Below are positions 2,418-64,000 of a stretch of 64,000 nucleotides of DNA, in pieces. This DNA is from a bacterium (GTDB lineage Archaea; Thermoplasmatota; E2; JACPAO01; JAHFTW01): the NCBI GenBank assembly GCA_040390065.1, contig JAZJZE010000005.1, positions 341,170 through 405,169 of the forward strand. The letters run 5' to 3'. The notes under the pieces were generated by a model. The model searched no databases. It was not told the origin of the DNA and saw only the letters and a program-made list of their open reading frames with translations. The stretch's first letter is position 1. Each line of letters begins with the position of its first letter. The position numbers were made by a program, and so were the translations under genes.

Positions 2418-4097
2418 ATGAATCCACCTGCCCACCCCTCCAAGGCCGAAGCCGTCAAGACGACAGGCCACGGGGAGGCGAAAGCGACGACCACGAAGCC
2501 GGCCGCCAAGGCCCCCGGCGGGCAGACCAACGGCGCCGGCCTCGACCCCGTGTCGCGTCTGCGGGAACGCAAGGCCCAGGCCATGATGGGAGGCGGGTTG
2601 GCGCGCATCGCGGCGCAGCACGAGAAGGGCAAATACACGGCCCGCGAACGCATCGATTTGCTCGTCGACCCGGGCACGTTTGTCGAGATCGACCCGTTCG
2701 TGCGCAGCCAAGCCACGGGTTTCGGCATGGACAAGCAGCGCTTCGACGGCGACGGCGTCGTGACCGGGTTCGGCTACGTCGACGGCCGGATCGTCTACAT
2801 CTACAGCCAGGACTTCACGGTCCTCGGCGGCTCGCTCGGCAACGCCACGGCGTCCAAGATCTGCAAGGTCCAGGACATGGCCGTGAAAAACGGCGCGCCC
2901 ATCATCGGCTTCAACGACTCCGGAGGCGCCCGAATCCAGGAAGGCGTTGCGGCGCTCGCCGGCTACGGGGATATCTTCTTCCGCAACGTCAACGCAAGCG
3001 GAGTCGTACCGCAGATCTCCGTCATCGTTGGCCCGTCCGCGGGTGGCGCAGTCTATTCCCCCGCCATCACGGACTTCGTCCTCATGGTCGAGGACACGTC
3101 CCACATGTTCGTGACCGGCCCCGACGTCGTGAAGACCGTGACGGGCGAGGATGCAAGCCAGGAAGAGCTCGGCGGCGCATCCGTGCACGCCGTCAAGTCC
3201 GGCGTCGCCCACTTCTCGGGCATCGACGAGGACGAGACCATCCAGATCCTGAAGCGCCTCATCGGCTACCTGCCGTCCAACAACCTGTCGGAACTGCCCG
3301 TGACGAAGCCGACGGACGACCGTTTCCGCATGGACGAGGCGCTGGACACGATCGTCCCGGACAACCCGAACAAGCCCTACGACATGCGCAACGTCCTCGA
3401 CATGGTCATGGACAAGGGCTCCTTCTTCGAGATCCAGCCGCGGTGGGCACAGAACGTCGTCATCGGCTTTGCCCGCCTCGATGGCTACCCCATCGGCGTC
3501 GTGGCCAACCAGCCCGCCGTCATGGCCGGCGCCCTCGACATCGAATCCAGCATCAAGGCCGCGAAGTTCATCCGTTTCTGCGACGCCTTCAACTTCCCCA
3601 TCGTGAGCTTCGTCGACGTCCCCGGCTTCCTGCCCGGACTGGGCCAGGAGCACGGCGGCATCATCCGCAACGGCGCCAAACTCCTCTACGCGTACTGCGA
3701 GGCAACGGTGCCAAAGTTGTGCGTCATCACGCGCAAATCCTACGGCGGCGCATACATCGTCATGTCGTCCAAGCACGTGGGCTCCGACATGAACTTCGCC
3801 TGGCCCGGCGCCGAGATTGCCGTCATGGGCGCGGAGGGCGCCGTGCAAATCCTCTACAAACGGGAACTCTCGAAGCTCGCGGAAGGCGACCCCGTCAAGG
3901 CCAAGGAGTTGCAGGCCACGTTCCAGAAAGAGTACCAGGAGAAGTTCGCGAACCCGTACGCGGCCGCCGAGCGCGGCTGGATCGACGACGTCATCGAACC
4001 CAGCGAGACCCGGCCCCGCCTCATCGCGGCGTTGTGGCCGCTCATCAACAAGCGCGAGCTGCGGCCCGCCAAGAAACACGGGATCATCCCGCTGTGA
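2418..4097 (+). CDS. pccB: Acyl-CoA (acetyl/propionyl-CoA) carboxylase carboxyltransferase subunit (PccB-like)
   Basis: GKYTARERI, QDFTVLGGSLG, DSGGARIQEG, VDVPGFLPG, RKSYGGAY, KKHGIIPL; start chosen by TATA spacing. Confidence 0.93.
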   Translation: MNPPAHPSKAEAVKTTGHGEAKATTTKPAAKAPGGQTNGAGLDPVSRLRERKAQAMMGGGLARIAAQHEKGKYTARERIDLLVDPGTFVEIDPFVRSQATGFGMDKQRFDGDGVVTGFGYVDGRIVYIYSQDFTVLGGSLGNATASKICKVQDMAVKNGAPIIGFNDSGGARIQEGVAALAGYGDIFFRNVNASGVVPQISVIVGPSAGGAVYSPAITDFVLMVEDTSHMFVTGPDVVKTVTGEDASQEELGGASVHAVKSGVAHFSGIDEDETIQILKRLIGYLPSNNLSELPVTKPTDDRFRMDEALDTIVPDNPNKPYDMRNVLDMVMDKGSFFEIQPRWAQNVVIGFARLDGYPIGVVANQPAVMAGALDIESSIKAAKFIRFCDAFNFPIVSFVDVPGFLPGLGQEHGGIIRNGAKLLYAYCEATVPKLCVITRKSYGGAYIVMSSKHVGSDMNFAWPGAEIAVMGAEGAVQILYKRELSKLAEGDPVKAKELQATFQKEYQEKFANPYAAAERGWIDDVIEPSETRPRLIAALWPLINKRELRPAKKHGIIPL

Positions 4098-4101
4098 GAC
4101 C

Positions 4102-4794
4102 ATGGTCCAGACCTCCCGCACGTTGCAGATCGAGTTGCCCCCGCCGTTCCCGGCAAACTTCCTCGATTACGTCACGGACGCAGCCCTCAGCCTGCCACAG
4201 ACCTCCGCCACCGTGGAGTTGACGCACGCACTCGCCGCCGTCGGCTACCGCTACCGCGCCATGCACGACGCTCAACGGATGCTGCAGGGCTCGCTCGCAG
4301 TCACAGTGCGCGGCCGCACTCCGGAGGAGAAATTCGTGCAGGACAGCCACCTTATGCACTTCCTGACCGACGGCCTGTCCTCCATCGAAGCCCTGGCTTT
4401 CTCCGCCTACCTCTGCGGCCACCTCACGAACGCGCCGCGCTTTCCCATCCACGCCGGAGCCTTGGCCAAGGTCACGCCGATGTCAGTCGAGAAGCTGTTC
4501 CGCCGCACCTTGCCCCAGGCCGGCCTCACGGCAAGCCTTCGCCGCTTGTGCCGCGCCCGCGAATTCGAGGAATGGAAATCCATGCGCACGACGCTCACCC
4601 ACCGCAGCCAACCCGCCCTTCAGCCCCACCACTTGCTGGTCAGTAAAGTGGCAGAGCTCGACGAAACCTGGCTCCGGCGCAAGCGCGGCTGGCTCGACGA
4701 CCAGATCCTCGTCCTTCTGCGTGAGCTGTTGTCCTTCATGGGCAAGGAAGTCCAGGTGCAGCACGCGCAACCGGTCCACGTGCTGGTGAACTAG
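4102..4794 (+). CDS. Hypothetical helical protein, possible HEPN-like domain (RxxxxH)
   Basis: ORF fills the gap between pccB and the PKS (its TAG abuts the PKS ATG); MRTTLTHR motif. Confidence 0.6.
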   Translation: MVQTSRTLQIELPPPFPANFLDYVTDAALSLPQTSATVELTHALAAVGYRYRAMHDAQRMLQGSLAVTVRGRTPEEKFVQDSHLMHFLTDGLSSIEALAFSAYLCGHLTNAPRFPIHAGALAKVTPMSVEKLFRRTLPQAGLTASLRRLCRAREFEEWKSMRTTLTHRSQPALQPHHLLVSKVAELDETWLRRKRGWLDDQILVLLRELLSFMGKEVQVQHAQPVHVLVN

Positions 4795-13934
<9,140 letters not shown>

Positions 13935-13938
<4 letters not shown>

Positions 13939-13988
13939 CGGCCGATACCGTCAAACGGCTCGCGCCGCTGGCCGGGGTGTCCCCATGA
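13935..13988 (+). other. 17-codon mini-ORF bridging PKS stop and biotin carboxylase start
   Basis: MTADTVKRLAPLAGVSP with an ATGA overlap at both ends. Confidence 0.4.
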
Positions 13989-15580
13989 GCACCTTCTCGA
14001 AGATCCTGGTCGCCAACCGCGGCGAGATCGCCTTGCGCATCATGCGCACCGCGCGCGAGATGGGCATCAAGACCGTCGCCATCCACTCCCCGCAGGATGC
14101 GCGGGCGCCGCACGTTCGCTTTGCCGAGGAAGCCTACCTCATGGGCAACGAGGCGACGGCGACGAACTACCTCAACATCCAGGGCATCGTCGACTTGGCC
14201 AAGGAGGTCGGCGCCGACGCCGTCCATCCCGGCTACGGCTTCCTCTCCGAGCGCGCCGAATTCGCGGAAGCGTTGGGCAAGGCCGGCATCAAGTTCATCG
14301 GGCCGCCCCCCGGACCAATCCGCATCCTCGGTGACAAGGTCGCATCCAAGGTCGCAGCGCGCAAGGCCAACGTGCCCGTCGTCCCCGGCAAGGACGAATT
14401 CGTCAGCACCCTCGACGAGGCCAAGGGCGTCGTCAAGCTCACCGGCTACCCCGTCATCATCAAGGCAGCCTTCGGCGGCGGCGGCATGGGCATGCAGGTG
14501 GTGCAGAACGAGGGCGAACTCGCCGCGGCGCTCGCGGCAACACAGCGCCAAGCCAAGGCAGCCTTCGGTCGCGGCGAGGTGTTCATCGAGAAGTTCATCC
14601 AGCGCCCGCGCCACATCGAGTTCCAGTTCCTCGCCGACGAGCACGGCAACGTCGTGCACTATGGCGAACGCGAATGCAGCGTGCAGCGGCGGCACCAGAA
14701 ACTCATCGAGGAGGCGCCAAGCCCAATCTTGCCCGCTTCCGAACGCGACCGCGTCGGCGCTGCCGTGTGCAAACTCGCAAAGGACGTCGGGTACTGGAAC
14801 GCCGGCACGGCCGAGTTCCTCTTCGACACGGACGCTCCCGGCGGCGGCCAGTTGTACTTCAACGAGGTCAACACGCGCCTGCAGGTCGAGCACCCTGTCA
14901 CGGAGCAAGTGTACGGCGTCGACTTGGTGCGTGAACAGATCCGCATCGCGCAAGGCGAGCCCCTCGGCTACGACCAGAAATGGGTCGACAGCCGCAGGCG
15001 GGGCTGGGCCATCGAGTGTCGCATCAACGCCGAGGACCCGCGCAACAAGTTCATGCCGACGCCGGGGACCATCCACCGGCACTTCCCGCCCAACGGCAAC
15101 GGCGTCCGGCTGGACACGTACCTGTACTCCGGGTTCACCGTGCCAAGCTCGTACGACTCGATGGTGGCGAAACTCATCACGTATGGTCAGGACCGAAACG
15201 AGGCCATCCGCAAGATGCGACGCGCCTTGGCCGAGTACGACCTCGGGAACCTCGTCACGAACCGCGAACTGCACCAAGTCATCTTCCACGACGAAGCGTT
15301 CTGCAAAGGGGAGATGACGACGCGGTTCCTGGACGACCGCAAGATCCTCGACAAACTCATGGGCGTGCAGGCCGCCGTCGACCACGCGACGAAGCAGAAA
15401 CTCGCGGCACTTGCAGCCGCACTTGCCCAGGAACCAGGCGGCATCGACTCCCTCGTCCAGAAATCCTACCAGTTCCAGCAAAGCCAGGCCAAGAATGTCG
15501 GCGTCGACGAATTCGGCCGGCGCAAACTCTCCGCGTGGGGCCGCCGTGGCCGCTACGAGGGCCAGGGCCGGGTGCACTGA
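13985..15580 (+). CDS. accC: Biotin carboxylase subunit of acyl-CoA carboxylase
   Basis: KILVANRGEIA, HPGYGFLSE, KAAFGGGGMG, RECSVQRRHQK, EVNTRLQVEH, YDSMVAKL. Confidence 0.95.
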   Translation: MSTFSKILVANRGEIALRIMRTAREMGIKTVAIHSPQDARAPHVRFAEEAYLMGNEATATNYLNIQGIVDLAKEVGADAVHPGYGFLSERAEFAEALGKAGIKFIGPPPGPIRILGDKVASKVAARKANVPVVPGKDEFVSTLDEAKGVVKLTGYPVIIKAAFGGGGMGMQVVQNEGELAAALAATQRQAKAAFGRGEVFIEKFIQRPRHIEFQFLADEHGNVVHYGERECSVQRRHQKLIEEAPSPILPASERDRVGAAVCKLAKDVGYWNAGTAEFLFDTDAPGGGQLYFNEVNTRLQVEHPVTEQVYGVDLVREQIRIAQGEPLGYDQKWVDSRRRGWAIECRINAEDPRNKFMPTPGTIHRHFPPNGNGVRLDTYLYSGFTVPSSYDSMVAKLITYGQDRNEAIRKMRRALAEYDLGNLVTNRELHQVIFHDEAFCKGEMTTRFLDDRKILDKLMGVQAAVDHATKQKLAALAAALAQEPGGIDSLVQKSYQFQQSQAKNVGVDEFGRRKLSAWGRRGRYEGQGRVH

Positions 15581-16071
15581 TGCGATACTCGTTCCAACTC
15601 AACGGGCGCCGCTTCATGGTCAACCTCGAGGAACATGCTGATGGCCCGCGCTACGTCGTCGAGGACGAGACGTTCGCCCCCAAGGTGGAAGCGCTCGGCA
15701 AGGGCCGCTACAAGGTGACAATCGGCCACCAGCGGTACGAGTTCAGCATCCACAACGGCATCGTCATGGAGGGCCCGCGCAACCTCGACCTAGAGGTCCG
15801 CCGCGAGCGCCCTGAACTGGCACGCAGCAAGTCCGGCGGCCGCAAGAACGACGGCAAGATCAGGCCCCCGATGCCCGGCAAGATCGTCGAAGTCAAGGTC
15901 AAGGAAGGCCAAGAGGTCGCGGAAGGCGACGTCCTCGTGGTGCTCGAGGCGATGAAGATGCAAAACGACCTCAAGTCGCCGATTGCAGGGACCGTCAAGC
16001 GCGTGCACGTGCAGGACGGGGCCAACGTCGAAGCGACGGCTGTGCTGTTGGAGATCACGCCCAAGGCCTGA
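15580..16071 (+). CDS. accB: Biotin carboxyl carrier protein
   Basis: PMPGKIV and LEAMKMQN biotinylation motif; TGATG overlap with accC. Confidence 0.92.
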   Translation: MRYSFQLNGRRFMVNLEEHADGPRYVVEDETFAPKVEALGKGRYKVTIGHQRYEFSIHNGIVMEGPRNLDLEVRRERPELARSKSGGRKNDGKIRPPMPGKIVEVKVKEGQEVAEGDVLVVLEAMKMQNDLKSPIAGTVKRVHVQDGANVEATAVLLEITPKA

Positions 16072-17852: not shown

Positions 17853-18623
17853 GTGTCCGTCGTCCTGTGCGACATCGATGACAAGGGCATCGCGACCCTG
17901 ACCATCAACCGCCCCGAAGCCTTGAATGCCCTCAACGCCGACGTGCTCGACGTCCTTGGCTCGACGGTCAAGGGCCTACATGGCAAAGCAAAGGCCATCC
18001 TCGTCACGGGCTCGGGCAAGGCATTCGTTGCCGGCGCAGACATTGCGGCGATGGCGAACCTGAACGGCGAACAGGCTGCAGCGTTCTCACGAAAGGGCCA
18101 GGCTGCATTCCAGGAGCTGTGCGATTTCCCCGGCCCCGTCGTCGCGGCCGTGAATGGCTACGCCCTCGGTGGCGGCCTCGAACTCGCCCTGGCCTGCGAC
18201 ATCATCATCGCGTCCGACAAGGCCAGCGTGGGACAACCGGAGGTCTCGCTAGGCGTGGTACCCGGCTTCGGTGGTTCGCAGCGTTTGCCCCGACGCGTCG
18301 GCCCCGGTATCGCGAAGTTCCTCCTCATGACCGGCGACCGGGTCAAGGCCGACGTGGCGCTGCAGATGGGCATCGTCGACCGCGTCGTGCCGCACGACAC
18401 CCTCATCCCGGAATGCCGCAAACTCCTCGAAACGATTCTGGCACACGGCCCGCTGGCGGTTGCATCGGTCAAGAAGCTCGTCGACGAGGGCCTCGAGACG
18501 GACTTGTGGGAAGGCCTTGAGTTCGAAGCGGAGGGCTTTGGCGCGTCGTTCAGGACCGCGGACCAGAAGGAAGGCATGAAGGCGTTCCTGGAGAAGCGGA
18601 CGCCGACATTCACGGGCCACTAG
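17853..18623 (+). CDS. crt: Enoyl-CoA hydratase (crotonase)
   Basis: INRPEALNALN, AFVAGADI, GYALGGGLELALACD, QPEVSLGVVPGFGGSQRL. Confidence 0.92.
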   Translation: MSVVLCDIDDKGIATLTINRPEALNALNADVLDVLGSTVKGLHGKAKAILVTGSGKAFVAGADIAAMANLNGEQAAAFSRKGQAAFQELCDFPGPVVAAVNGYALGGGLELALACDIIIASDKASVGQPEVSLGVVPGFGGSQRLPRRVGPGIAKFLLMTGDRVKADVALQMGIVDRVVPHDTLIPECRKLLETILAHGPLAVASVKKLVDEGLETDLWEGLEFEAEGFGASFRTADQKEGMKAFLEKRTPTFTGH

Positions 18624-19567
18624 ACACGACGAAAGCGCCTTGCGCCGTCCTGCTCGGACCACGCGGCGCGCCCTTCAAGCTCGAGCAAATGCAAGTGCCC
18701 GACGACCTCACACATGCCGAGGAAGCGTTGGTCGTGCGCCAAATGCGGCAAGACCTCCGGCAAGAGTTGCCAAGCCGTCTTCGGCCGGTCGAGGTGCTCG
18801 AGGATCTTGCGGCCGCGCTTCTCGTGTTTGGCGAGGTGGACGTCGAGAAGAGAGTCGGTCAAGGTGAACGGTTCATGGTGGCCCGGCAAGACGTCGCAGC
18901 CGACGAATGCCCGAAGACTGCGCAGCGTCCGGAGATACTGCCCATAGCGGCCGCGGTCGGCATCGAGGAGTTCGATGGCGTTCGACGTGATGTGTTCCAG
19001 CAGCGTGTCTCCCGAGAGCAATTGGTTGTCGTCGGTGAGGATGACGAGGGATCCGGGTGTGTGGCCGGGGGCGTGGAAGGCGGTGGCCTTCGTTTCGCCG
19101 AGCTGGATGCGCTCGCGCGACCGGACGTCGTGGCCGATCGGGCAGTCCTCCAGAAAGCCGTCCATGGCGGCGCCTTCCAGACGCATGACGGCGACGACAT
19201 CAGGCGGCGCGCCGTGGGCCGTCAGCGCCGTGGCAAAGGCGTCAAGGCGGCGAGGCGCATCCTTGCAGAACGTTTCGACGAAACGCGATTCCTCCTTCGG
19301 AGCCCAAAGCGTGGCTCCGAATTCCCGGCGCAGGCGAGCGGCGTTGCCGGCGTGGTCGACGTGGCCGTGCGTCACGACAAGGTGCAGGCCGTTGGCGTCG
19401 GCGCCCGAATCTCCCAGACCTTCGCGCAGCGCTGCGTACCCGTCGCGGGTTCCGATGCCGCAGTCGACAAGGCCAGTTGCATCTGCGCCGCGACCGGGGA
19501 AGACCCAGGCGTTGGCCGTGCGCAGCGGGAAGGGCAAGGGAATCGTGATGCGCGTCGGCGCCGCCAC
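18620..19567 (-). CDS. MBL-fold metallo-hydrolase
   Basis: PLPFPL..AN, VDCG, THGHVDH, PGHTPG, SGDTLL, LPGH. Confidence 0.88.
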   Translation of the reverse strand: MAAPTRITIPLPFPLRTANAWVFPGRGADATGLVDCGIGTRDGYAALREGLGDSGADANGLHLVVTHGHVDHAGNAARLRREFGATLWAPKEESRFVETFCKDAPRRLDAFATALTAHGAPPDVVAVMRLEGAAMDGFLEDCPIGHDVRSRERIQLGETKATAFHAPGHTPGSLVILTDDNQLLSGDTLLEHITSNAIELLDADRGRYGQYLRTLRSLRAFVGCDVLPGHHEPFTLTDSLLDVHLAKHEKRGRKILEHLDRPKTAWQLLPEVLPHLAHDQRFLGMCEVVGHLHLLELEGRAAWSEQDGARRFRRV

Positions 19568-19649
19568 ATCGGCACCGAACCGGCCGGGGCGGAAAAGCGC
19601 GCCCCTTGGCCGAAAAGGCAAAGGACTGCGCCGGAATGCTAGCCCGTCC

Positions 19650-20405
19650 ATGGACGGGCCACTTCGCCACGTCACGTTCCGCGTCAACCACGATTGCCCC
19701 ATGGCCGCCCTCAGCCGCGAGGTCCCCGCTGCAGACTTCCATTGCTGGAGCGGCCACCGCCTGGAGGTCGTGGAGGTGCGTTGTGCTTCAGCCGTCTGGC
19801 CCCTCGTGGCCCAAGCCGCGAAACGGCACTTGGCGCCCGAACGCATCCTGAGCGTGCCGGAAGGCGGCATCGTCGTGTGGGAGCCCGAGCGTCCGCGAGC
19901 GCATCCCGAGTCGAGCATCAGCCAGACGCTGGAGGCGCACCACGTCCTGTGGATGCAGCCCATGCGCGTGCAAGGTGGCTGGGAGCACTACGACGCCATC
20001 TCGTTTGCCTCTGGCGGCGACCAAGCGGCCCTCACTGCGCTGTCCAAGTCGTGGCCCACACAGGTCGTCCGCCGCCGCGACGTCGGTGCCGAAGACGTGC
20101 TGGCCTCGCTGTTCCTGTCGTTGCGGCCCGCCCTCGACGCACCCACGGACAAGCAGGCAGAAGCCCTCCTGGCGGCCAGCGCAGGCGGGTACTACCGCTC
20201 GCCGCGCAATGCCACGACGGCGCAACTCGCCCGGCGACTCGGCATCGGTCGAAGCGCGTTCGAGGAGCGCCTACGCGGCGGGGAGAACCGCGTCCTGGGA
20301 GCCGTCCTGCCGGCCTTGGAGCAGCAGCGCGCCTTGCATCCGGGGCCGAAGCGGAGAAAAGGCCGGCACACGTCGGCACACCGTGGACTTCAGCCTCAGC
20401 GATGA
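19650..20405 (+). CDS. Bacterio-opsin-activator-type (HTH_10) transcriptional regulator
   Basis: C-terminal [10 protein letters not shown]...[31 protein letters not shown]; N-terminal HDCP. Confidence 0.82.
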
Positions 20406-21522
20406 CGAGGCGCTGATTCGCAAGACCGTGCGAGAGCTTGCCCGCGGCCCTATTGCCTCGCGGGCTGCCGCCCTGGACCGTACAGGCACGTTCCCATCGG
20501 AGGCCATGCACGAACTGGCTGGGCTCGGCACGCTCGGTGCACAGATTCCGTCCGAATACGGCGGCTCGCCGGTCTCCAAGGTCGCGTACAACCTCATCCT
20601 CGAGGAGCTCGCCTGGGCCTGTGCGTCGACCAGTGTCACGTGGGGCGTGCACACGAGCGTTGCCGCCACGCCCATCGTGCAATGGGGTTCGCCCGCAATC
20701 AAGGAACGCTTCCTGCCGCGCCTGGCCTCTGGCGAGTGGATCGGATGCTTCGCCCTGACCGAGCCCGGCGCCGGATCAGACGTGGCGGCCATCACGACGA
20801 CGGCGATTCGCGAGCGCGACGATTACCGTATCAACGGCTCGAAGGTCTTCATCACCAACGGCAACCAGGCCGGCAGCGCCATCGTCGCCGCGAAGACGGA
20901 CCCCGCCGCCGGCCACCGGGGGATCAGCCTGTTTGCCGTGGAGACTTCCTGGAACGGGTTCGGACGGGATGGCCACGAAGACAAGCTCGGCCTCCGCGGC
21001 AGCGACACGGCCCGCCTCAGTTTCACGGACCTGATGGTGCCGAAAGAGAACCTTCTCGGTTCCCCCGGCGACGGCTTCAAGCAGCTCATGCACACTCTCA
21101 ACGGGTCGCGCATCGGCATCGCCGCGCAGGCTGTGGGCATCGCCCAGCGGGCCTTCGACGAAGCGACCTCCTACGCGAAGGAGCGGCGCCAATTCGGCAA
21201 GCCCATCGCTACGAACCAGGCAATCCAATGGAAACTTGCCGACATGGACGTGCGCATCGAAGCGGCGCGGCTCCTCGTCCTGCAAGCCGCGTCAGCGCTC
21301 GATATGGGCGACGTTCCGCCTGCCATGGCGTCGCGGGCCAAGCTGTTTGCCAGCGAGACGGCGACTTGGGTGACGCGTGAAGCCGTGCAGGTCCATGGCG
21401 GCAACGGGTACACCACCGACTACGTCGTGGAGCGCCTGATGCGTGACGCCAAGGTCACGGAAATCTACGAAGGCACGAGCGAAATCCAGAGGATGCTCAT
21501 CGCGCGCAGCCTGCTTGCGTAG
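20383..21522 (+). CDS. Acyl-CoA dehydrogenase
   Basis: [57 protein letters not shown]. Confidence 0.94.
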
Positions 21523-29883: not shown

Positions 29884-30819
29884 ATGCGCCTGTGGCCATT
29901 GGCCTTCCTCGTCGTGCTCGCCGTCCCCGCCGCCGCGGCCCAGCCAGCCCACCCCGTCGTCGTCGAAGTCGACCTGCTGGTCATCAGCTTCGGCAACTAC
30001 GACGCAAACAAGGGCACCTACACGATGGACCTGTACCTCCACCTGTCGTACGATGCCATGCACAGCGGCGGCATCGACCCGACGCATTTCGAGTTCGTCA
30101 ATGGGCGGGCCGCCAGCAAGGAACTGCAGTCCGACGACACCAACGCCACGACCGGCATCCGCGACTTGTGGTACAGGTTGCAGGTGAACCTGTACGCCGA
30201 GCCGCACTTCGAGAACTACCCGTACGACGCCCAAATCCTCAGCCTCCAACTCGAGGACGCCGTGCACACCGACAGTGAACTCGTCTACCGCGACGCCCTG
30301 ACGGGGACGGGCATCGACCCGGACATCCACGTCGCCGGCTGGCGCATCGACAATGCAGGAGCGACGGTGGCCCCGAAAGTCTACGCGTTCGGCGAGACCT
30401 ACAGCCGCTTCGCGTACCAGGTCCAGGTCAGCCGCGAACCATTGTCGGCGACCTTGCGCGCCTTCCTGCCGCCGCTGGCGTTCATGATCGTGAGCGCCTT
30501 GTCGTTCTTCCTGCACGCCTCGAAGGTCGCCCAGCGACTGACGCTCGGCACGTCGATGCTCATCGCGGCCGTGGGTTTCCACATCAGCCAGACCGTCTCG
30601 CTGCCGACCCTCGGCCGCTTGACCCTGTTCGACCAACTCATGCTGGCAGCCTACGCCTTCCTTGCTGCCAGTCTCGCCGTGACGGCGCTCGTGGCGTACA
30701 ACGAGGATTTCCGCAAGGACGACAAGACGGCAGCCCGGTCGACGCGGATCAACGTCCGCGGCGCCGTGCTTGCCGCCGCGCTTCCCGTGTTGGTCTTCCT
30801 GGCGCTTCGGTTCCTCTAG
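29884..30819 (+). CDS. Prokaryotic pentameric ligand-gated ion channel (GLIC/ELIC-like, Pro-loop)
   Basis: Signal peptide, beta-rich ectodomain, FENYPYDAQ Pro-loop, GW, pre-M1 R, four TM helices with M2 QRLTLGTSMLIA and M2-M3 LP..G.LT..D. Confidence 0.8.
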   Translation: MRLWPLAFLVVLAVPAAAAQPAHPVVVEVDLLVISFGNYDANKGTYTMDLYLHLSYDAMHSGGIDPTHFEFVNGRAASKELQSDDTNATTGIRDLWYRLQVNLYAEPHFENYPYDAQILSLQLEDAVHTDSELVYRDALTGTGIDPDIHVAGWRIDNAGATVAPKVYAFGETYSRFAYQVQVSREPLSATLRAFLPPLAFMIVSALSFFLHASKVAQRLTLGTSMLIAAVGFHISQTVSLPTLGRLTLFDQLMLAAYAFLAASLAVTALVAYNEDFRKDDKTAARSTRINVRGAVLAAALPVLVFLALRFL

Positions 30820-33122
30820 GACGCCGCCACACCGGCTTGGTGCGGCGCCATCGTGCTTGCCAGCGCACTCGGGTGCAGGCGGAGGAACCGCCCATCGCGC
30901 ACGGTGACGACGAGGCCGCCATCGATGAGGCGCTTGACGTGATACGTCACCGTCGATGCCTGCAGGCCGCTGCGCTGCGCGACCTCCTGCGATGTCAAGC
31001 CCGGTTGTGCCGCGACGACGGCGAGGATGGAGCGTGCGCCGTCGGACTTCATGGCGGGGGCGGCCGCAATCTGCATGCGTCCCGCGCCGCGCGGGAAGTA
31101 GCAAGTGTAGCCACCCGATGGCCGCGCCACGACCAGACCGGCCTCCGTGAGCTTCGACAAGTGATGGACGAGCGTGCCGTTTGGCAATCCGCTGCGCCGG
31201 CCAAGTTCCTGGAAGTGGATGCCAGCATCGGCTTCGATGAGCGCGGCCAGCCTGGCCCTATGCGGGTTGTCGAGGAGCTCCGGGTTGCGCAGGCGCGAGA
31301 ACAGGCCGATGGATCCACCCTTCAGGATGGGCCACACCCAGTAGAGCGCGCCGACGAACAAGCCAACGAGGCTGATGCCGGCGGCCTGCGCAGGGTTCGG
31401 CAACCATCCCGGGATGGAGTTCGCGGAGCCTGATGCGGGCGGAATGCCCGAGGGCTTGGTCGCCGCTGCCCCCTGCAGGCCGTTGCGCACACTGCTGTTC
31501 TCCTGCGAGGTTTCGAGGACGGACGGTTCGCCGTTCACCATCGCCAGAGCGCTCATGCGTGTTTCGGCGTCCTCGACGATGGTGGGCGGCGTCGTGGTGG
31601 TGTCGACGCGCCGGCCGGAGGAGGTCGACTCGACCCATCCGGCGCGCGTGAAGCTCACCGCAACCGAGCACGACACGGTCCCGTTCGTGAAGCGGAACCC
31701 GCAGAGTTCGGCGTATGCCAGGTCATTCGATGGATGGGCGCCGTCCGCCGCCGTCGCGTAGTCGCGCCAGCGGTCAGCCAACGAGACCCAAGTGGGCAGC
31801 TCCTTCGGCTCCGGGGGCACGGGCCAATCGAACGACGACGAACCGAAGTCGATGTAGGAGAACACGTGTTGCGGCATCGGCGGCGGCAAGCCGGTTGCAT
31901 GCAGGATGTAGACGATGACCGAGTAGCTGTCGTGGCCGTCGCCTTCATGGAACCACCAGGCGGGGCCACGCAGATCGACGCTGAACGCCACGGTCGTGTA
32001 GGCCTTCGGGTGCGCTGCCCTGAAATCGCGCAAGCCGGAGAACGACGGGTCCGTCATGGCTTGGTTCCACGCCTCCGAGGGCAACAGCGGGACGTTCAGC
32101 CCCTTGTCATCCGGTCCCCAGGGCTTGCTGGGCGCCATGACGAGGCCGGGGATGGGATCTCGCGGCGCTGGGCCCAGGGTCCTTGCCACCGTGCCGGGGG
32201 CGTAGCTGACCAGGACCATCGTGGCGTGGTCGCCGTTGTCGTCCGTGCTGCGGGCCTCCAACTTGAGAGGGGAGGAGATGCCCGAGGCAAACCACACGGA
32301 GACCTGGTACTCCTTCAGCGAGACCTCATCGGACGAGAAGTCCATGACGGCATCCGTCAAGACGCGGCTGGCATCGAAGCGCAAGGCGGGCCGACCGTCC
32401 AGCATGTCCAACGCCTTGGCTTGGTACGTCCCCGCCGGCAGGGTGGCAACCTCGCCAATCGTGCACGTGTCCTCCAGAAGGAAGGAGGCGCCGACGGCAA
32501 ACGTGCGGCCCTGCGCCGGGTTCACGAACAGGCAGAAGGCGTCGCCCACGCCGAAGGAGCGGCTCTGGCTCTTCTCATGCGTGACGATCTGGCTGTGGAT
32601 GACTTCCGGCAGGCCGCCGACCGTGAGAGGAGAGCCCAGCAGGCCGCCGTCCGTCACGTTGCTCGTCGTCCGGTTCGATTCCGATGCCCAGACCTGCGAC
32701 GAGCCTTGCTCGAACAGGATGGCGCCGTGGTACGATTCCCAAGGGTTGTGGTCGGGCTTGCCGTCGAAGTCGAAGTCGAACGTGTTGAGCTCGTCGTAGC
32801 GCATGCCTTCGACGAGCCCGCGGTCCGTGGCGTGCACGAGCCCATCCGCCATGCGCACGGGCTCGCCCTTGCCGAAGCTGAAGTTGGCAAACGGCGCAGC
32901 GCCATGGGCAAACGGTCCATCCAGCCAAGGACCCTTGAGGTCGAGCGAATAGCTGCCCTTGTCGCCAAGGTGCGCAACAGGAACCTGCACGTCGCGGCGG
33001 GCTGCGGACGTCTGCGAATTGGCATTGCCGGCGCCGACCACGCCGACGAGGATCGAACTCGTGAGGATGGCGATCAAGACGGCGGGCAGCAGGCGGCGGC
33101 CCAAGCGGGCAGGTCGGGTCAT
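30816..33122 (-). CDS. Membrane-anchored double winged-helix transcriptional regulator with large ectodomain (paralog 1)
   Basis: N-terminal hydrophobic signal, long ectodomain, TM, KGGSIGLFSR, NPHR, GIHFQEL, HHL, GYTCYFP, second HTH TVTYHVKRL. Confidence 0.85.
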   Translation of the reverse strand: MTRPARLGRRLLPAVLIAILTSSILVGVVGAGNANSQTSAARRDVQVPVAHLGDKGSYSLDLKGPWLDGPFAHGAAPFANFSFGKGEPVRMADGLVHATDRGLVEGMRYDELNTFDFDFDGKPDHNPWESYHGAILFEQGSSQVWASESNRTTSNVTDGGLLGSPLTVGGLPEVIHSQIVTHEKSQSRSFGVGDAFCLFVNPAQGRTFAVGASFLLEDTCTIGEVATLPAGTYQAKALDMLDGRPALRFDASRVLTDAVMDFSSDEVSLKEYQVSVWFASGISSPLKLEARSTDDNGDHATMVLVSYAPGTVARTLGPAPRDPIPGLVMAPSKPWGPDDKGLNVPLLPSEAWNQAMTDPSFSGLRDFRAAHPKAYTTVAFSVDLRGPAWWFHEGDGHDSYSVIVYILHATGLPPPMPQHVFSYIDFGSSSFDWPVPPEPKELPTWVSLADRWRDYATAADGAHPSNDLAYAELCGFRFTNGTVSCSVAVSFTRAGWVESTSSGRRVDTTTTPPTIVEDAETRMSALAMVNGEPSVLETSQENSSVRNGLQGAAATKPSGIPPASGSANSIPGWLPNPAQAAGISLVGLFVGALYWVWPILKGGSIGLFSRLRNPELLDNPHRARLAALIEADAGIHFQELGRRSGLPNGTLVHHLSKLTEAGLVVARPSGGYTCYFPRGAGRMQIAAAPAMKSDGARSILAVVAAQPGLTSQEVAQRSGLQASTVTYHVKRLIDGGLVVTVRDGRFLRLHPSALASTMAPHQAGVAAS

Positions 33123-33235
33123 TTGGACACCACTCGCACCACCTTGGGATGTAGTTAAAGGTAGAGTGGAGCAGGGTTCGAATCCACCGGGCTATCCCTG
33201 GAGGGAACGTCGAATCGACCCGGGATTGGCCGAGG

Positions 33236-34693
33236 TCATCCGCCGCCGGGGGAGACCCGGTCCGCGGAGGGCACGGTCTGCTTCTTCGGGTCTAGTGCGG
33301 CGTCGATCCTGGCCTTCGGCAGGCCGGCGTCGCGGTAGGCGATCTCGCGCACGGTCTTGTGCTCCTTCTGGCTCGTCTTGGCGATCTGCGCCGCCTTGTC
33401 GTAGCCGATGAGCGGGTTGAGTGCCGTGGCCATGGAGACGCTGCGTTCGACCGCGGCGGTGGCGCGTTCCGCGTTGGCCTTCGTGCCGGCCAGGCAGTTG
33501 TCGACGAAGACGCGCGACACGGCCGCGAGAAGGCGCGTGGACTCGAGCAAGTTGTGCGTCATCATCGGGAGCATGACGTTGAGGTCCAACTGGCCCCACT
33601 GGCCGCCGATCCGCACTGCGGCGCAGTTGCCCGTGACGTGGGCGCCTACCATCGTGACGGCCTCGCAGATGACCGGGTTCACCTTGCCAGGCATGATGCT
33701 GGAGCCCGGCTGGATGGCGGGGAGTTGCAGTTCCCCAAGGCCGCAGTCGGGGCCGGAGCCCATGAGGCGGACGTCGTTGGCGATCTTCATGAGGCTCGCG
33801 GCCACGGTGTCGAGGGCGCCGGCGGCAAAGACGTAGGCGTCGCGGCTGGCTTCGGCCTCGAAGTGGTTCTTGGCTTCGACGAACTTGAAGCCCGTTGCCT
33901 CCGTGAGTTTCGCGGCCACGCGGGCGCCGAATTCCGGATGGGCGTTGAGGCCGGTGCCGAGGGCCGTGCCGCCTTGCGCCAATTCCAGCAGGCCTTCCTC
34001 GGCTTGGCGGATGCGTCGGATTCCCAACTCGATTTGGCGGGCGTAGCCGGAGAATTCCTGGCCGAGGCGGATGGGGACCGCGTCCTGCAGGTGCGTGCGG
34101 CCGACCTTGACGACGTCGTCGAACTCCTTCGACTTCCGGACGAGGCAGTCGTGCAGGTACTCGAGGGCAGGGATGAGTTCGTGCTCGAATTGCAGGACGG
34201 CGGCGACGTGCATCGTCGTCGGGATGACGTCGTTGGAGGATTGGCAGAAATTGACGTGGTCGTTCGGGTGAACGTTTTCGCCAAGGATCTGCGTGGCAAG
34301 GTGCGCGACGACCTCATTGGCATTCATGTTGGTGGATGTGCCGGAGCCGGTCTGGAAGACGTCGATGGGGAAGTGCTCGAGGTGTTCGCCCTCGTAGATG
34401 GACAGCGCCGCTTGCGCGATGGCATCGGCCACGGCGGGCTTGAGGAGCTTGAGGTCCTTGTTCGCCATGGCGCACGCCCACTTGACGAGGCCGAGGCTGC
34501 GCACGAACTCGGGGGGCAGGTGCAATCCGGAGATGGGGAAGTTGAGGACCGCCCGCTGCGTGCTTGCGCCCCAGAGTGCGTCGATGGGGACCTCCATCGG
34601 GCCCATCGAGTCCTTCTCCGTCCGCGTCGCGGGGCCTTGGCCCTTCTCGTAGTCGGAACCCGGTTCGGCGGCAGCCACTGCCTTCTTGGCCAT
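33236..34693 (-). CDS. fumC: Class II fumarate hydratase
   Basis: RTEKDSMG, FQTGSGTSTNMN, HPNDHVN, GRTHLQDA, GSSIMPGKVNP. Confidence 0.96.
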   Translation of the reverse strand: MAKKAVAAAEPGSDYEKGQGPATRTEKDSMGPMEVPIDALWGASTQRAVLNFPISGLHLPPEFVRSLGLVKWACAMANKDLKLLKPAVADAIAQAALSIYEGEHLEHFPIDVFQTGSGTSTNMNANEVVAHLATQILGENVHPNDHVNFCQSSNDVIPTTMHVAAVLQFEHELIPALEYLHDCLVRKSKEFDDVVKVGRTHLQDAVPIRLGQEFSGYARQIELGIRRIRQAEEGLLELAQGGTALGTGLNAHPEFGARVAAKLTEATGFKFVEAKNHFEAEASRDAYVFAAGALDTVAASLMKIANDVRLMGSGPDCGLGELQLPAIQPGSSIMPGKVNPVICEAVTMVGAHVTGNCAAVRIGGQWGQLDLNVMLPMMTHNLLESTRLLAAVSRVFVDNCLAGTKANAERATAAVERSVSMATALNPLIGYDKAAQIAKTSQKEHKTVREIAYRDAGLPKARIDAALDPKKQTVPSADRVSPGGG

Positions 34694-34730
34694 GGCGGGG
34701 CCGACGGGGGCAGGGGAGAAAAAGGGTGGG

Positions 34731-36944
34731 TCAGGCCGCCACGGCGGATGGGCCGCCAACCAGCATCAAGCCGGCGAGGTCAGCCCGGAGGATGCCGGCC
34801 TTGCGCAGCCTGTCAACGTGGTAGTGCACGGTAGGCGGGCTGACGCCAAGCCGCCTGGCGACCTCCGCCGATGTCACGCCTGGCTGCCCCCTGGCTGCCG
34901 CCAGGATGGCCTTCGCCACGGGCGATTTGACAAGCGGTGCGGCCTCCATCGCAAGGCGGCCTGTTCCGCGTGGAAAATAGCACGTATAGCCGTGCCGACG
35001 GGAGGCAACGACAGCCCCTGCTTCCGCCAACGTGCGCAGGTGGTGCTCGACGGCGCCGTTGCCGATCCCAACCCGGCGCACGAGCTCCTGCAGGTGGATT
35101 CCTGGTTCGCGCTGAACCAGTTGCGCGATGCGGGCCCGCGTAGGATTGGCGAGCACGTCCTCGGCCTGGACGCGGGAAAACAGCCCGACGGCGCCGCCCT
35201 TGGCTGCAGGCCAGACCCACCACAGGAGGCCGGCAATGATGGCCAGGCCTCCGACGGCCTCGACGGCCGGAACGCTCGGCCATTTCCAGAAACCCGCTGC
35301 GCCGGCGTCAAGCGGCGTGAATGGCTGCTTGGAGGCGGGAAGTTGGGCGGCTGCTGGGGCGACGTCGGTCTTCTCTCCCGACGATACGGTCATGAAGGCG
35401 TGCGGTCCGTCTTCTGGCACGGTCCACTCGAGGTACTGCCCCGATGACTCGGTCGTCTGCAGCGGGTTGAAGCTCCCGAGGCCCGTCAGGTTGTAGTGAG
35501 CCTCTCTGTGTCCCGCCTGGTAGTACGGCTGGGCCTGCGTGCAGGACGCCTTGGTGACTTGATCATCGTAACATCCGAGCCAGAAGTCCCACGCGTTTGG
35601 CGCCGGCCGGACTTCGCCTGGCCGGAAGGCCTGATACTGCGCGAACATCGAGGCTACCGTGGGCGTCATCGCGGGCAGATTGTCCCGCGGTAGGAACCGC
35701 ATTCCGTCGAAGAACTGACCAAACTCCGCATCGCCCTGGAATTCGTCGTGTCCGGCTTGCCGCACGGGCCCGAGCCCTCCCAGGGCGGGCACGGTGCGAA
35801 TCGCATCGAAAGCGAGGCGCGCTCTCGGATCGGCGGCAATCATCCGCCACGTGTAGGAGACCTCCCCGAATGCATTCGTGGATTGCGACAACCGGGCGGC
35901 GCCCAGGTAGGCGGTGGGGTGAGCTGCCAGGAAGGTCCGAACGTCCGAGTAGATCACGTCCGATTTCGCTTCGGCCCACGCCTCGGATAGAGGAAACGGG
36001 TGAACGACGCCGGAATCCTCGACGATAGTCTCTGTCCGCGGCGCCATCTTGACTGGGGGCATCGACGGTAGTGCCACGCCAGACTTGTCGGCGATTGGCA
36101 CGCGTCCGCGCTCGAAGGATACCAACCGATACGAGTATCCTCCACGCTCCGGATTCCACGGGTCGACGACGAACTTCATGCGCACCGGGTATGGAATGTC
36201 CTCCTGGAACCAGAGACGCAGGTCCGTGCCGTTGAATCGTGAACTGAACCAGTCCACGACAATCGTCCGGTGGGGGGCATTGGGAACCTCGCCTCGCGGA
36301 ATGAGGAAGGCTGTGCGCGTCGTATTGATCGTCGCGAGGTCGCACCCGCCTAGTTCGGGAAGCGGCTTCTGCAAATCCCACGTGCGGCCTTGGAGGGCGC
36401 TCCGCCCTCCGCATGGTGCTTGAACGTCGGCGAAGACGGTCTGGTCCCAATCGCCAGTGGTGGAATGGGGCAGACCAGGCAACGGGGTCTCATTGTACGA
36501 GTATCCGCCGGCCGTGCGCAGGTTCCAGGCCGTGCCATCGACGGTTCCCGCAGCAAAGTGTGTGGCGCCGCTGTACCCGAATCCGGCGGCTGACACAACG
36601 GTCGTCCCGCCTGGGTCATCGCCGAGGAGCATGCGGCGCCACGAGAAGCGATTTGCCAGGACGGGGGAGGTCCCCTGGTAGTCGATGACGTCGCCAAGGG
36701 TCTCGAAATCCACGCCTTCGGAAAGCGGGAACCTGTAGGTTCCGTTGCCCTCGAAACGATACTGCCCACGATCGCCGACATTTGGCCACGCCAGGGTGAA
36801 TGGCGCAGGCGGGGCGGAGGACTCGCCGGGGTGTGGAGCCGCGGCGATGACGGTCCCGACACCGCCGACAAGCAGGGCCGTGAGTACCGCGGCGGCGATG
36901 TGCTTGGGCTGCGTGAGTTTGGCGTGCATCGGCTTGTGGGCCAT
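34731..36944 (-). CDS. Membrane-anchored double winged-helix transcriptional regulator with large ectodomain (paralog 2)
   Basis: Same architecture; KGGAVGLFSR, NPTR, PGIHLQEL, EHHL, GYTCYFP, TVHYHVDRL. Confidence 0.85.
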   Translation of the reverse strand: MAHKPMHAKLTQPKHIAAAVLTALLVGGVGTVIAAAPHPGESSAPPAPFTLAWPNVGDRGQYRFEGNGTYRFPLSEGVDFETLGDVIDYQGTSPVLANRFSWRRMLLGDDPGGTTVVSAAGFGYSGATHFAAGTVDGTAWNLRTAGGYSYNETPLPGLPHSTTGDWDQTVFADVQAPCGGRSALQGRTWDLQKPLPELGGCDLATINTTRTAFLIPRGEVPNAPHRTIVVDWFSSRFNGTDLRLWFQEDIPYPVRMKFVVDPWNPERGGYSYRLVSFERGRVPIADKSGVALPSMPPVKMAPRTETIVEDSGVVHPFPLSEAWAEAKSDVIYSDVRTFLAAHPTAYLGAARLSQSTNAFGEVSYTWRMIAADPRARLAFDAIRTVPALGGLGPVRQAGHDEFQGDAEFGQFFDGMRFLPRDNLPAMTPTVASMFAQYQAFRPGEVRPAPNAWDFWLGCYDDQVTKASCTQAQPYYQAGHREAHYNLTGLGSFNPLQTTESSGQYLEWTVPEDGPHAFMTVSSGEKTDVAPAAAQLPASKQPFTPLDAGAAGFWKWPSVPAVEAVGGLAIIAGLLWWVWPAAKGGAVGLFSRVQAEDVLANPTRARIAQLVQREPGIHLQELVRRVGIGNGAVEHHLRTLAEAGAVVASRRHGYTCYFPRGTGRLAMEAAPLVKSPVAKAILAAARGQPGVTSAEVARRLGVSPPTVHYHVDRLRKAGILRADLAGLMLVGGPSAVAA

Positions 36945-36987
36945 GGAGGGACACGGCGCGCCTGGCCTTATCAGGAGCGCGGGGGGA

Positions 36988-37027
36988 TTCTCTAATGGCT
37001 AACGCCCAGTTGGGGCGTTTCTCTAAT
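36988..37027. promoter_or_regulatory. TTCTCTAAT direct repeat flanking an AACGCCC/GGGCGTT inverted repeat, candidate operator
   Basis: Repeats at 36988-36996 and 37019-37027; palindrome 37001-37019; lies upstream of paralog 2. Confidence 0.4.
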
Positions 37028-37048
37028 ACCTTGCTCCAGGCCGACGAA

Positions 37049-60720: not shown

Positions 60721-61560
60721 TCAACACGGCTTGGGGACGCCGGCCATCTGAGACATGGCGCGACCTAGCGCCGGCCCCCAGAGAATCAAGTTACTGCCTA
60801 CGCCAGCGCCCCGAACACTTGGGTACTGGAAGCCCGATATGCCTAGCGTCTCAAGAAGGAAGCGAACCACGTGGCTTGGGCGGTAGATTGTTTCGTCCTG
60901 GTTAGCGTCCTGCTCGGCTACGAAGAGGATGGCGTTGAGGTGCGGATGCGTCGCCTCGGCGTTTCGAGGAAGTTCCAGGAAACGTAGTTCAGACAGGTCC
61001 AGCTCGAACGCCTGCATGTAGACCACGTCGGTGGCAGACGCGCGCATCTCGGCTCGAGCGACGGCCACCGTTTCCGCAAGGTAGAGGCATGGCTCCTTTC
61101 GTCCGTTGTATCGGCCTTCGCCGGTCGGCTTCGGGTTGGGCCCGTAGTGCGAGGGGTCTTCCGCTAAAGGCGGAAGCAAGCCGGCTCGAGCGCGAACATA
61201 CCTCCCAGTCCACGTTTGCGTCACCAGGGATTTCGCTTCGTCCAGAATCTGCTTCCCAACGGGCTCTGCCACCAGGGCACCAACCTGCGGGGGCCACACA
61301 TCAGCGCAGGCTGTGTCCAGGAAACCTCGAACGGCGTAATAGGCCGGCGGCGTCTTGGTGTTGATGACGGTCGCCAGTCGCTGCGTCCCGGCATGGGTCG
61401 CCACGCCAACAACGCTGTCCACCATGGTTTCGATTCCCATGCTGAACGTAACGGCGAGATCGCTCTTCATGCAATCCATGCATGCATGCGGGCCCTTCGG
61501 AACGTAGTTCGTTGAATCACCGACCACCCTTCCGCAGTGACGGCAAGTAACGGCAGACAT
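60721..61560 (-). CDS. RES domain protein with N-terminal CxxC/CxxC zinc finger
   Basis: YVRAR, GEGRYN, LYLAE...ARAE, YRPS, GFQYPSVR, NLILW; CRHC and CMDC. Confidence 0.82.
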   Translation of the reverse strand: MSAVTCRHCGRVVGDSTNYVPKGPHACMDCMKSDLAVTFSMGIETMVDSVVGVATHAGTQRLATVINTKTPPAYYAVRGFLDTACADVWPPQVGALVAEPVGKQILDEAKSLVTQTWTGRYVRARAGLLPPLAEDPSHYGPNPKPTGEGRYNGRKEPCLYLAETVAVARAEMRASATDVVYMQAFELDLSELRFLELPRNAEATHPHLNAILFVAEQDANQDETIYRPSHVVRFLLETLGISGFQYPSVRGAGVGSNLILWGPALGRAMSQMAGVPKPC

Positions 61561-61563
61561 CTG

Positions 61564-62133
61564 CTAGAATCCCGCCCGCAACAACTCGCCCGGCAAATCA
61601 ACCACATTGCGGACCTCGAAGCCCCACTTGTCCTGAATCTCTTTGGCGTAGTGCACGAAATGGCCGTCCTTGCTGTAGACGTAGACCTCGCGGCCATTCC
61701 CCACGAGCTTGCCGGCTTGGATCATGATGATGCGATCTCCCGGGTCTGGCATGCTAGATTTGGGCTTGCCCCCGGCATCGGGGAGCTTCTTTCCGACTAA
61801 TCGGAAGTAGTCCTCCGCGTCCTGTTCGTCAGCAGGCGTAACCACGGGATCCTCCTCCTTGGCAAGCTTCAGCGCCACTTCGAGGTCGGCTTGGACCTTG
61901 CGCACCAATCGGTTGAGTTTGTCGTAGCCATGGCCAGCGAGTCGTGTCGGCGCCTCCCGCTGAACGACGGCGCGGCTCTCGGCACGAATAATGGGAAAGG
62001 CAACGAGAACGCCATCCTTGTTGTCGACCATCTGGGCCAGGCGCGAGATATCAATGGCCTCAAAACTGCCATCGCCCCGCGAACCCCGCTCCTTGAACGC
62101 ATGGGCCACGAATGCGCTGCTTTCGGGAATCAC
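61564..62133 (-). CDS. PIN-like domain protein
   Basis: DPGDRII and VYSKDGHF resemble the C-terminal PIN acidic motifs; N-terminal IPESS is atypical. Confidence 0.5.
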   Translation of the reverse strand: MIPESSAFVAHAFKERGSRGDGSFEAIDISRLAQMVDNKDGVLVAFPIIRAESRAVVQREAPTRLAGHGYDKLNRLVRKVQADLEVALKLAKEEDPVVTPADEQDAEDYFRLVGKKLPDAGGKPKSSMPDPGDRIIMIQAGKLVGNGREVYVYSKDGHFVHYAKEIQDKWGFEVRNVVDLPGELLRAGF

Positions 62134-63035: not shown

Positions 63036-63254
63036 GGAGTCCATGTGAAGTGAAGGCCTATAAGAGCGTTGATACGAGTTGGGTGAAAGTGAATAGGCAG
63101 GACTCAATAGTAGAAGTTTTGGTCACCTTGTAATATAAGAAGGCAGCCATATTCGAACTGCGAGTCCTCGAATGACTTCACGACGCGGTCCTGGATCCAA
63201 AGGCTCAGCGACTTGTAGCCCGCCTTCGTCGCCAGGTCGCGGCAAATTCCTGTC

Positions 63255-63956: not shown

Positions 63957-64000
63957 TAGCTCCGGGCGACCGTACCCAATCCAGCCGATCGCTCGGATTA

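Follow-up and report, generated by a model that had tools for sequence, protein, structure and literature searches.

The stretch of DNA analysed here, 64,000 nt of contig C5 from the host genome G000 (the window, G000:C5:341170-405169; feature coordinates are window positions), carries a 3047-aa Type R iterative type I synthase within a five-gene cluster of a thermoplasmatotal archaeon. Judging from gene content, this protein is probably an acyl carrier protein (ACP)-dependent, fully reducing fatty-acyl synthase whose chains would be transferred to glycerol phosphate by PlsC-family enzymes, giving ester glycerolipids. Considering the parts separately, we regard a reduced acyl chain as a very likely product and, once such a chain is granted, a glycerolipid as its likely destination. 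What we observe are genes, intact catalytic residues, linkage and co-occurrence, from which activity and product are predicted. The five tightly packed open reading frames (ORFs) singled out by a first-pass annotation all exist, co-oriented on the + strand and separated by 4, 0, 46 and -1 nt. They are listed below with the synthase domains (ketosynthase, KS; acyltransferase, AT; ketoreductase, KR; polyketide synthase, PKS; dehydratase, DH; phosphopantetheinyl transferase, PPTase).

2418-4097, + strand: pccB-type carboxyltransferase (PccB/AccB family), 559 aa; PF01039 E 2e-195
4102-4794, + strand: orfX, hypothetical helical protein, 230 aa
4795-13938, + strand: Type R iterative type I synthase, 3047 aa; KS1-AT-KS2-ACPx3-KR-DH-PPTase
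4816-6348, + strand: KS1, PfaA/PKS-like ketosynthase; C223, H357, H401, triad in 113/113 long homologs
6655-7611, + strand: malonyl-type AT; GHSLG S720, R745, AFH motif H825
7945-9660, + strand: KS2, FabF-like ketosynthase; triad C1311, H1459, H1499 in 113/113 homologs
9778-10695, + strand: three tandem ACPs; T1692, T1816, T1930 (codon ACC) at the phosphopantetheine site
11365-12033, + strand: KR; S2368, Y2381, N2385, with S and Y in 112/112 aligned homologs
12313-13122, + strand: PKS-type DH; H2526, with Glu2698 replacing the usual Asp
13369-13785, + strand: fused Sfp-type PPTase; H2916, D2933, E2935, K2974, E2975
13985-15580, + strand: biotin carboxylase (AccC), 531 aa; Pfam/NCBIfam
15580-16071, + strand: biotin carboxyl carrier protein (BCCP, AccB), 163 aa; Pfam/NCBIfam

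Pfam and NCBIfam annotation gives a KS-AT-KS2-ACP3-KR-DH-PPTase megasynthase (Pfam, in aa: KS 8-518, AT 621-939, a second KS, 3 ACP, KR 2191-2413, PKS-type DH 2507-2776 and PPTase 2859-2997), and the Pfam scan of the protein returned neither an enoyl reductase (ER) nor a thioesterase domain. Catalytic motifs were assigned from the known signatures of each family and then checked against alignments, on which all catalytic residues of the synthase read as intact. The conservation set holds 113 homologs longer than 2600 aa, some entered twice as protein and locus. Within it S720 and the AFH motif of the AT are kept in 113/113 (R745 was read from the sequence), the DH His is found in 112/112 with Glu instead of Asp in 110/111, and the PPTase residues are conserved in 62/62 homologs with the domain detected. 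The proposed activation of the ACPs in cis is thereby supported, the PPTase being fused at the C-terminus with its residues intact. KS2 is divergent and carries a helical insert in its AlphaFold2 model (pLDDT 82), for which the best Foldseek matches are FabF (E 4e-25). Since its modelled fold is closest to FabF, KS2 is not a typical chain-length factor (CLF), though the domain was named CLF in 2011. The whole protein scores 948 bits against TIGR02813 (PfaA; cut-off 1010), and fungal fatty acid synthase (FAS) alpha is a weak match only, in a PPTase-related comparison. Domain order is rearranged within the family, with extra ACPs N-terminal to KS1 in L209/L210 (family f14), L211/L212 (f38), P0053, P0104 and P0105.

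All three ACPs read LGIDT, with Thr at the position that in aligned solved ACPs is the phosphopantetheine Ser. The replacement extends to nearly all homologs: the ACP profile recovered 650 domains in 228 partly redundant sequences, of which 633 have Thr, 8 are truncated and 9 are other, namely 3 clear Ser domains in family f22 and a degenerate remainder, and all four Thr codons occur at the site. Three f22 synthases (L204, L205, L213) combine a Ser in the first ACP with Thr in the others, which offers a natural comparison of the two residues inside one protein. Both in G000 and in the single-contig genome G077, of Marine Group II (MGII) type, ACP-family matches were found only inside the synthase. 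A Thr-linked phosphopantetheine, if true, would be a departure from familiar carrier-protein chemistry.

The missing reductase step would be supplied in trans. G000 encodes a FabI on another contig (G000:C17:32249-33154), between pheS and two PAP2 genes. FabI is its best NCBIfam family, at a score below each equivalog cut-off; the Tyr/Lys motif is present, and it is 51-55% identical to FabIs abutting the synthase in other Thermoplasmatota. Taking FabI as the ER, KS, malonyl-AT, ACP, KR, DH and ER are all encoded with their catalytic residues. The gene abuts the synthase in five f30 and two f14 loci annotated, and G047, from the host's own family, has the order pccB-synthase-fabI; the remaining eight fabI loci read in the host's order have the two genes apart. 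At E<=1e-45, FabI is found in 105/401 genomes of the phylum, 104 of them synthase-positive. The most telling case of co-occurrence is family f13, where the same 14/39 genomes hold both FabI and synthase, since kin share genes.

Synthase genomes without FabI number 23, and four of them were examined for another partner. Three (G063, G116, G175) encode the 543-aa acyl-CoA dehydrogenase found ahead of the synthase in Chloroflexota (57-61% identity); in G130 a dehydrogenase of this type lies near the synthase with etfB and etfA. The best NCBIfam family for this protein is acryloyl-CoA reductase, far below cut-off. Asgard-labelled homologs often carry a fused NMO/FabK-like domain, and the f22 and G026 synthases retain worn remnants of such an N-terminal region. 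With three alternative reductase-type partners, a saturated product is therefore favoured. Other reductase candidates were set aside in the host: a PfaD/FabK-type reductase (weak partial PF03060 matches only, best E 1.5e-7, 5/5 genomes, with FabI instead), the Chloroflexota 543-aa dehydrogenase (ordinary paralogs in G000, 33-37% over ~380 aa), and the acyl-CoA dehydrogenase (20383-21522), crotonase (17853-18623) and upstream MDR gene of the window, all from ordinary families and a poorer fit than FabI. FabI matches with one in-frame TGA occur in two genomes of genus g100 (G098:C39:18644-19435 and G353:C14:6076-6864). The two PAP2-family phosphatase genes after fabI in G000 (L228:9217-10691), whose like recur nearby in G002, G005 and G006, are possible phosphatidate phosphatases.

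The carboxylase genes point to the extender unit. In an alignment to PDB entries, residue 422 of Streptomyces PccB corresponds to an Ile in the operon carboxyltransferase, as it does in 16/16 orthologs from the order's loci, and to an Asp in the paralog on contig C6. As Ile at this position marks the acetyl-CoA-accepting type, malonyl is more likely than methylmalonyl as the predicted extender. Of the (methyl)malonyl-CoA supply claimed in the first-pass annotation, then, the synthase's own supply stands and the methylmalonyl option recedes. Among 19 orthologous loci of the order, pccB lies directly upstream in 16 and accC downstream in 12; one is clearly without accC and six end at contig ends. 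The gene bioY sits between synthase and accC in 10 of the 12 accC-bearing loci, and tblastn gave no bioY match in G000. In an f22 genome (G094, L213:10890-15998) a multi-domain acetyl-CoA carboxylase of at least 1703 aa (BC, BT, BCCP, ACC_central), a layout known from eukaryotes, follows the synthase directly. The synteny comparison recovered the same gene order in independent genomes from three families, and the 39 bacterial-dominated loci annotated commonly run dehydrogenase-synthase-PPTase-pccB-accC-accB. The carboxylase link is a trait of the synthase family, since it is present in Chloroflexota loci and the available text of the 2011 survey notes an acc gene link in Koribacter (PMC3098273). 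The link thus does not reflect insertion of the synthase into an archaeal operon.

Genes for the proposed destination accompany the synthase. PlsC-family genes occur in 31/31 genomes of the order, as against 1/10 outside it, and in 127/127 synthase genomes of the phylum sample (401 genomes), where none of 238 PlsC-negative genomes has a strong synthase match; plsC and gpsA are adjacent in both f14/f32 loci read. GpsA scores above cut-off in G000 and is present in 5/5 order genomes and 43/151 phylum genomes. The second acyltransferase of G000 is a weak DAGAT match with a lipase as neighbour. G000, at 89% completeness, gave no further ketosynthase-length match and no FabZ/FabA (PF07977) match. 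It also keeps the ether-lipid genes, with EgsA and GGGPS above cut-off and DGGGPS-, GGR- and CarS-family genes present, and strong glycerol-1-phosphate dehydrogenase (G1PDH) matches are found in 28/31 order genomes.

Put together, the operon carboxylase would make malonyl-CoA, as its family and the Ile residue suggest; the fused PPTase would arm the three Thr-type ACPs; the AT would load malonyl, and the two ketosynthases would elongate the chain, perhaps with each acting at a different length. KR and DH would act in cis and FabI in trans would complete each cycle, a role indicated by gene linkage and co-occurrence. Because the synthase is without a thioesterase, the saturated chain would most likely leave when PlsC-family acyltransferases move it off ACP onto glycerol phosphate, with GpsA supplying glycerol 3-phosphate (G3P) and ester glycerolipids forming alongside normal archaeal ether lipids. 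A PlsC-type (AGPAT) domain is described as the chain-terminating step of myxobacterial polyunsaturated fatty acid (PUFA) synthases in the accessible part of PMC8436480. Of the "self-contained" dedicated pathway for a fatty-acyl or polyketide lipid first envisaged, the fatty-acyl-type product is likely and the self-containment is not supported: the synthase has no ER and no release domain, and its FabI is encoded elsewhere.

The synthase is nearly constant in the host's order. A search with KS1-AT found it in 30/31 genomes of the order vs 0/10 from other orders of the class, and one with KS2 in 37/38; G003 and G030 are weak in KS2 but strong for KS1-AT, and the sole order genome without a KS2 match, G013, is 85% complete. 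Across the phylum, 128/401 genomes matched (127 after removing one match at E 3e-5). By family, the synthase is found in 62/62 genomes of f30, 14/39 of f13, 15/15 of f22 and 8/8 of f14, and by the same search in 0/59 of f4, 0/48 of f10 and 0/16 of f5. We take f30 to be Marine Group II, and f13 probably belongs there too, because a protein labelled Ca. Poseidoniaceae shares 92% identity with the FabI adjoining an f30 synthase and because G1PDH was not found in 3/3 f30/f13 (MGII-type) genomes tested. In Chloroflexota, 8/201 genomes (completeness >=90%) have the synthase; this sample includes G448 and G583, flagged unpublished, both FabZ-positive and neither synthase-positive.

The contig is archaeal (Thermoplasmatota), as the first-pass annotation had supposed, and not bacterial. 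On contig C5, TFB, ribosomal L21e and archaeal AlaRS score above NCBIfam cut-offs, and further genes have RpoF, Cdc6/Orc1 or proteasome beta as their best family at scores under cut-off; the 16S region of G000 (contig C1) is an exact match to two archaeal primer sites. Record titles of relatives are mostly Thermoplasmatota or Thermoplasmata, with 2 Halobacteriales. Long-term integration into the host is likewise supported, the GC content at third codon positions (GC3) of the synthase being 0.861 vs a genome mean of 0.867 +/- 0.045. A promoter/terminator scan scored below chance, its model being sigma-70 and unsuited to archaea.

Several points weigh against a fatty-acyl synthase that feeds ester glycerolipids. 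Kin genomes are not independent, so the co-occurrence counts overstate. PlsC does not depend on the synthase, as 36 PlsC-positive genomes are without it, and PlsY, considered as first acyltransferase, was rejected (0/5 genomes), so that a PlsC-family paralog would have to carry out the first acylation. In family f22, 15/15 genomes have the synthase but 0/15 a GpsA match at E<=1e-40, a gap that could be explained by PlsC, since PlsY and PlsC accept both glycerol-phosphate forms according to the available text of PMC13400652. G083 (f32), the fourth of the FabI-less genomes examined, has neither FabI nor the 543-aa dehydrogenase. A role for Type R as primary FAS in Chloroflexota, entertained when 3/3 genomes were without FabZ, was dropped at n=201, where 7/8 synthase-positive genomes have a FabZ/FabA match vs 98/201 overall; there the synthase therefore does not replace type II synthesis. 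Lipidomics of a cultured Lokiarchaeon gave archaeal lipids only, as cited in the same available text (PMC13400652), the synthase status of that organism lying outside our comparison. Finally, the Escherichia coli ACP variant S36T cannot be phosphopantetheinylated, as the accessible text of PMC3340395 reports; the cognate PPTase would therefore have to be adapted to Thr.

That last result also feeds a different proposal, in which the Thr-ACPs stay unmodified in a structural role and the enzyme uses CoA esters or another carrier instead. The literature search yielded no paper on a natural Thr-linked phosphopantetheine, which would suit it. We nonetheless consider it very improbable, given a Thr that is nearly invariant while using all four codons, a genome with no further ACP, and an intact PPTase, either fused or encoded next door, in the archaeal loci read and most of the bacterial ones. 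About as improbable is a polyene synthase of the enediyne PksE kind that reduces only in part and to which FabI would be unrelated: the polypeptide does lack an ER and end in a PPTase, and the host fabI does lie on a different contig, but fabI is adjacent in relatives, co-occurs in 104 of 105 cases and gives way to other reductase-type partners in other lineages, and neither thioesterase nor enediyne cassette is nearby. An artefact of binning or assembly, or a recent bacterial island, can practically be dismissed. The genomes at hand are metagenome-assembled only, yet archaeal markers share the contig with the synthase, GC3 is host-like, contamination is 0.3%, and the identical gene order in independent genomes already contradicts an artefact.

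A specialised "secondary" lipid deserves more weight, though we think it unlikely on balance. The product might be very long, mid-chain-oxygenated or head-to-head condensed, with KS2 joining two chains, and might end up in storage, in a minor lipid of the envelope or on acylated proteins, and not in bulk phospholipid. Such a role would suit the divergent KS2 with its helical insert, the ether pathway retained in full by the host, the DAGAT-like acyltransferase beside a lipase, and the Chloroflexota pattern, patchy (8/201) and coexisting with FabZ; Shulse and Allen, in the available text, class the family as secondary lipid synthases (PMC3098273). Set against it are the near-universal presence in the order and in f30, in genomes of ~2 Mb, the lack of any synthase without PlsC in the phylum sample, and archaeal loci with no conserved tailoring or export genes.

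Beyond Thermoplasmatota, homologs labelled Heimdall-, Thor- and Asgard archaea share ~55% identity in KS2. The KS2 tree is unrooted, with 42 rows chosen from 88 (row L162, with stops, was dropped) and bacterial rows biased to the nearest matches. In it the Asgard rows form one branch, the MGII rows another, and 10/12 bacterial rows a branch beside MGII. Neither the order as one clade (p-AU 0.27) nor all archaeal rows on one side (p-AU 0.078) is rejected, and with this rooting and sampling we claim no transfer donor. P0051 (labelled Zixibacteria) and P0062 (labelled Bathyarchaeia) fall inside the Asgard branch; their bins or labels may be wrong. Tentatively, and as a possibility rather than an expectation, a two-KS type I FAS family with Thr-linked phosphopantetheine could supply the acyl chains of ester glycerolipids in many Thermoplasmatota (the order, Marine Group II and others) and in Heimdall/Thor-type Asgard archaea. 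If true, genomes with G1PDH-GGGPS-DGGGPS-CarS beside GpsA-PlsC-synthase-FabI would build membranes in which ether and ester lipids naturally mix, and on the archaeal side fatty acid synthesis could be older than the eukaryotic cell.

The unknown ORF that had been counted with the pathway, orfX, exists but falls outside the conserved pathway: it is a lineage-specific passenger, because it was found in 1/19 orthologous loci of the order. It has no Pfam or NCBIfam match; a weak lead is HEPN (Cthe_2314)-like, its Atlas neighbours are unnamed clusters of bacterial proteins, in one of which 26% of members carry PF18730, and its single-sequence fold (pLDDT 34) is uninformative. Elsewhere in the window, positions 1-2258 and upstream hold a suf operon (the end of sufS, sufU, a sufT-like gene) and genes for small cupredoxins, and most genomes of the family have both ahead of pccB. 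After accB (17853-21522) come a crotonase, a metallo-beta-lactamase-fold protein, an HTH_10 regulator and an acyl-CoA dehydrogenase. G006 repeats this order, and the crotonase also follows in several further genomes. Three proteins of 720-770 aa (30816-39220) end in HVO_0163-type double HTH domains; their long N-terminal parts are unannotated and resemble secreted or membrane-bound proteins. A separate modular cluster of nonribosomal peptide synthetase and PKS genes (C-A-PCP-TE, A-PCP, KS-AT-ACP) occurs in G017 of the host's family (L031:10354-19999). From 60721 to 64000 and onward on C5, the GC content drops to 0.59-0.63, which together with a RES-domain gene and orphan ORFs suggests a mobile island.

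Single-chain iterative synthases with a fused C-terminal PPTase are known in fungal and mycobacterial FAS I and in enediyne PksE (KS-AT-ACP-KR-DH-PPTase). From these architectures the host protein differs in domain order, in having two KS and in lacking MPT and a cis ER. Where PksE has a single KS, a single ACP, a linked thioesterase and cassette genes, it has two KS, three ACP and neither thioesterase nor cassette neighbours. The likeness to Pfa/PUFA synthases (PfaA-E; myxobacterial Pfa1-3) and HglE is closer, comprising a PfaA-like KS-MAT, tandem ACPs, KR, PKS-type DH, a trans reductase and no thioesterase. As read from sequence, however, the host appears to lack PfaB/PfaC, with neither the PfaC-type KS-CLF nor FabA-like dehydratases in the 89%-complete G000, and PfaD/FabK, and it has Thr for Ser and a second, apparently active KS in the chain.

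The synthase fits best among the uncharacterised Type R lipid synthases, described by Shulse and Allen in 2011 from five bacterial strains with a second KS called CLF, a separate PPTase and an uncharacterised product, as far as the available text goes (PMC3098273). Shared with that type are one PfaA-like gene of the order KS-MAT-(second KS-fold)-ACP(3-6)-KR, here with a full triad at the "CLF" position, the PPTase partner, here a fused C-terminal domain rather than a downstream gene, and the acc link of Koribacter. In the comparison, proteins labelled Roseiflexus sp. stood in for those of the strains named in 2011 (Koribacter, Solibacter, Elusimicrobium, R. castenholzii); one of these Roseiflexus-labelled proteins is 45% identical to the host synthase over the first 983 aligned columns, with the same Thr-ACPs and KS2 histidine motifs. 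The differences are the archaeal host, the fused PPTase, the DH, the Cys-His-His kept in the "CLF" and the trans FabI. The main text of the 2011 paper mentions neither archaea nor a product (PMC3098273), and in the literature searched, with most subscription papers and supplements (including that of PMC6461757) outside its scope, we found no archaeal Type R pathway or Thr-ACP and no characterised pathway matching the cluster. The nearest archaeal records, in their available text, are T1PKS/HglE-KS clusters listed without analysis in Poseidoniaceae by a retracted paper (PMC10434046) and a marine survey in which T1PKS is the second archaeal cluster class.

According to the available text of Schmerling et al. 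(bioRxiv 10.1101/2024.07.05.601840), archaea seem to be without both classical fatty acid synthases and nearly always without ACP. The ACP-independent complex described there shares de novo archaeal fatty acid synthesis with the predicted host route, but it runs on CoA through a ketothiolase/DUF35 without ACP. Proposals of mixed membranes in Marine Group II and Asgard archaea (PMC6461757, PMC7852524, PMC13400652) share the G3P dehydrogenase and ester-forming acyltransferases and, in their accessible text, name no ACP-dependent acyl source; the host keeps G1PDH, unlike the three MGII-type genomes. Known before, then, is the Type R architecture in bacteria; new here is an archaeal Type R locus with a fused PPTase and a predicted trans FabI. 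It offers a complete candidate fatty-acyl route, gene by gene, in one archaeal genome that keeps the ether pathway, which bears on the lipid divide. It is a candidate means by which some archaea could produce fatty-acid lipids beside isoprenoid ones, testable with a few soluble proteins.

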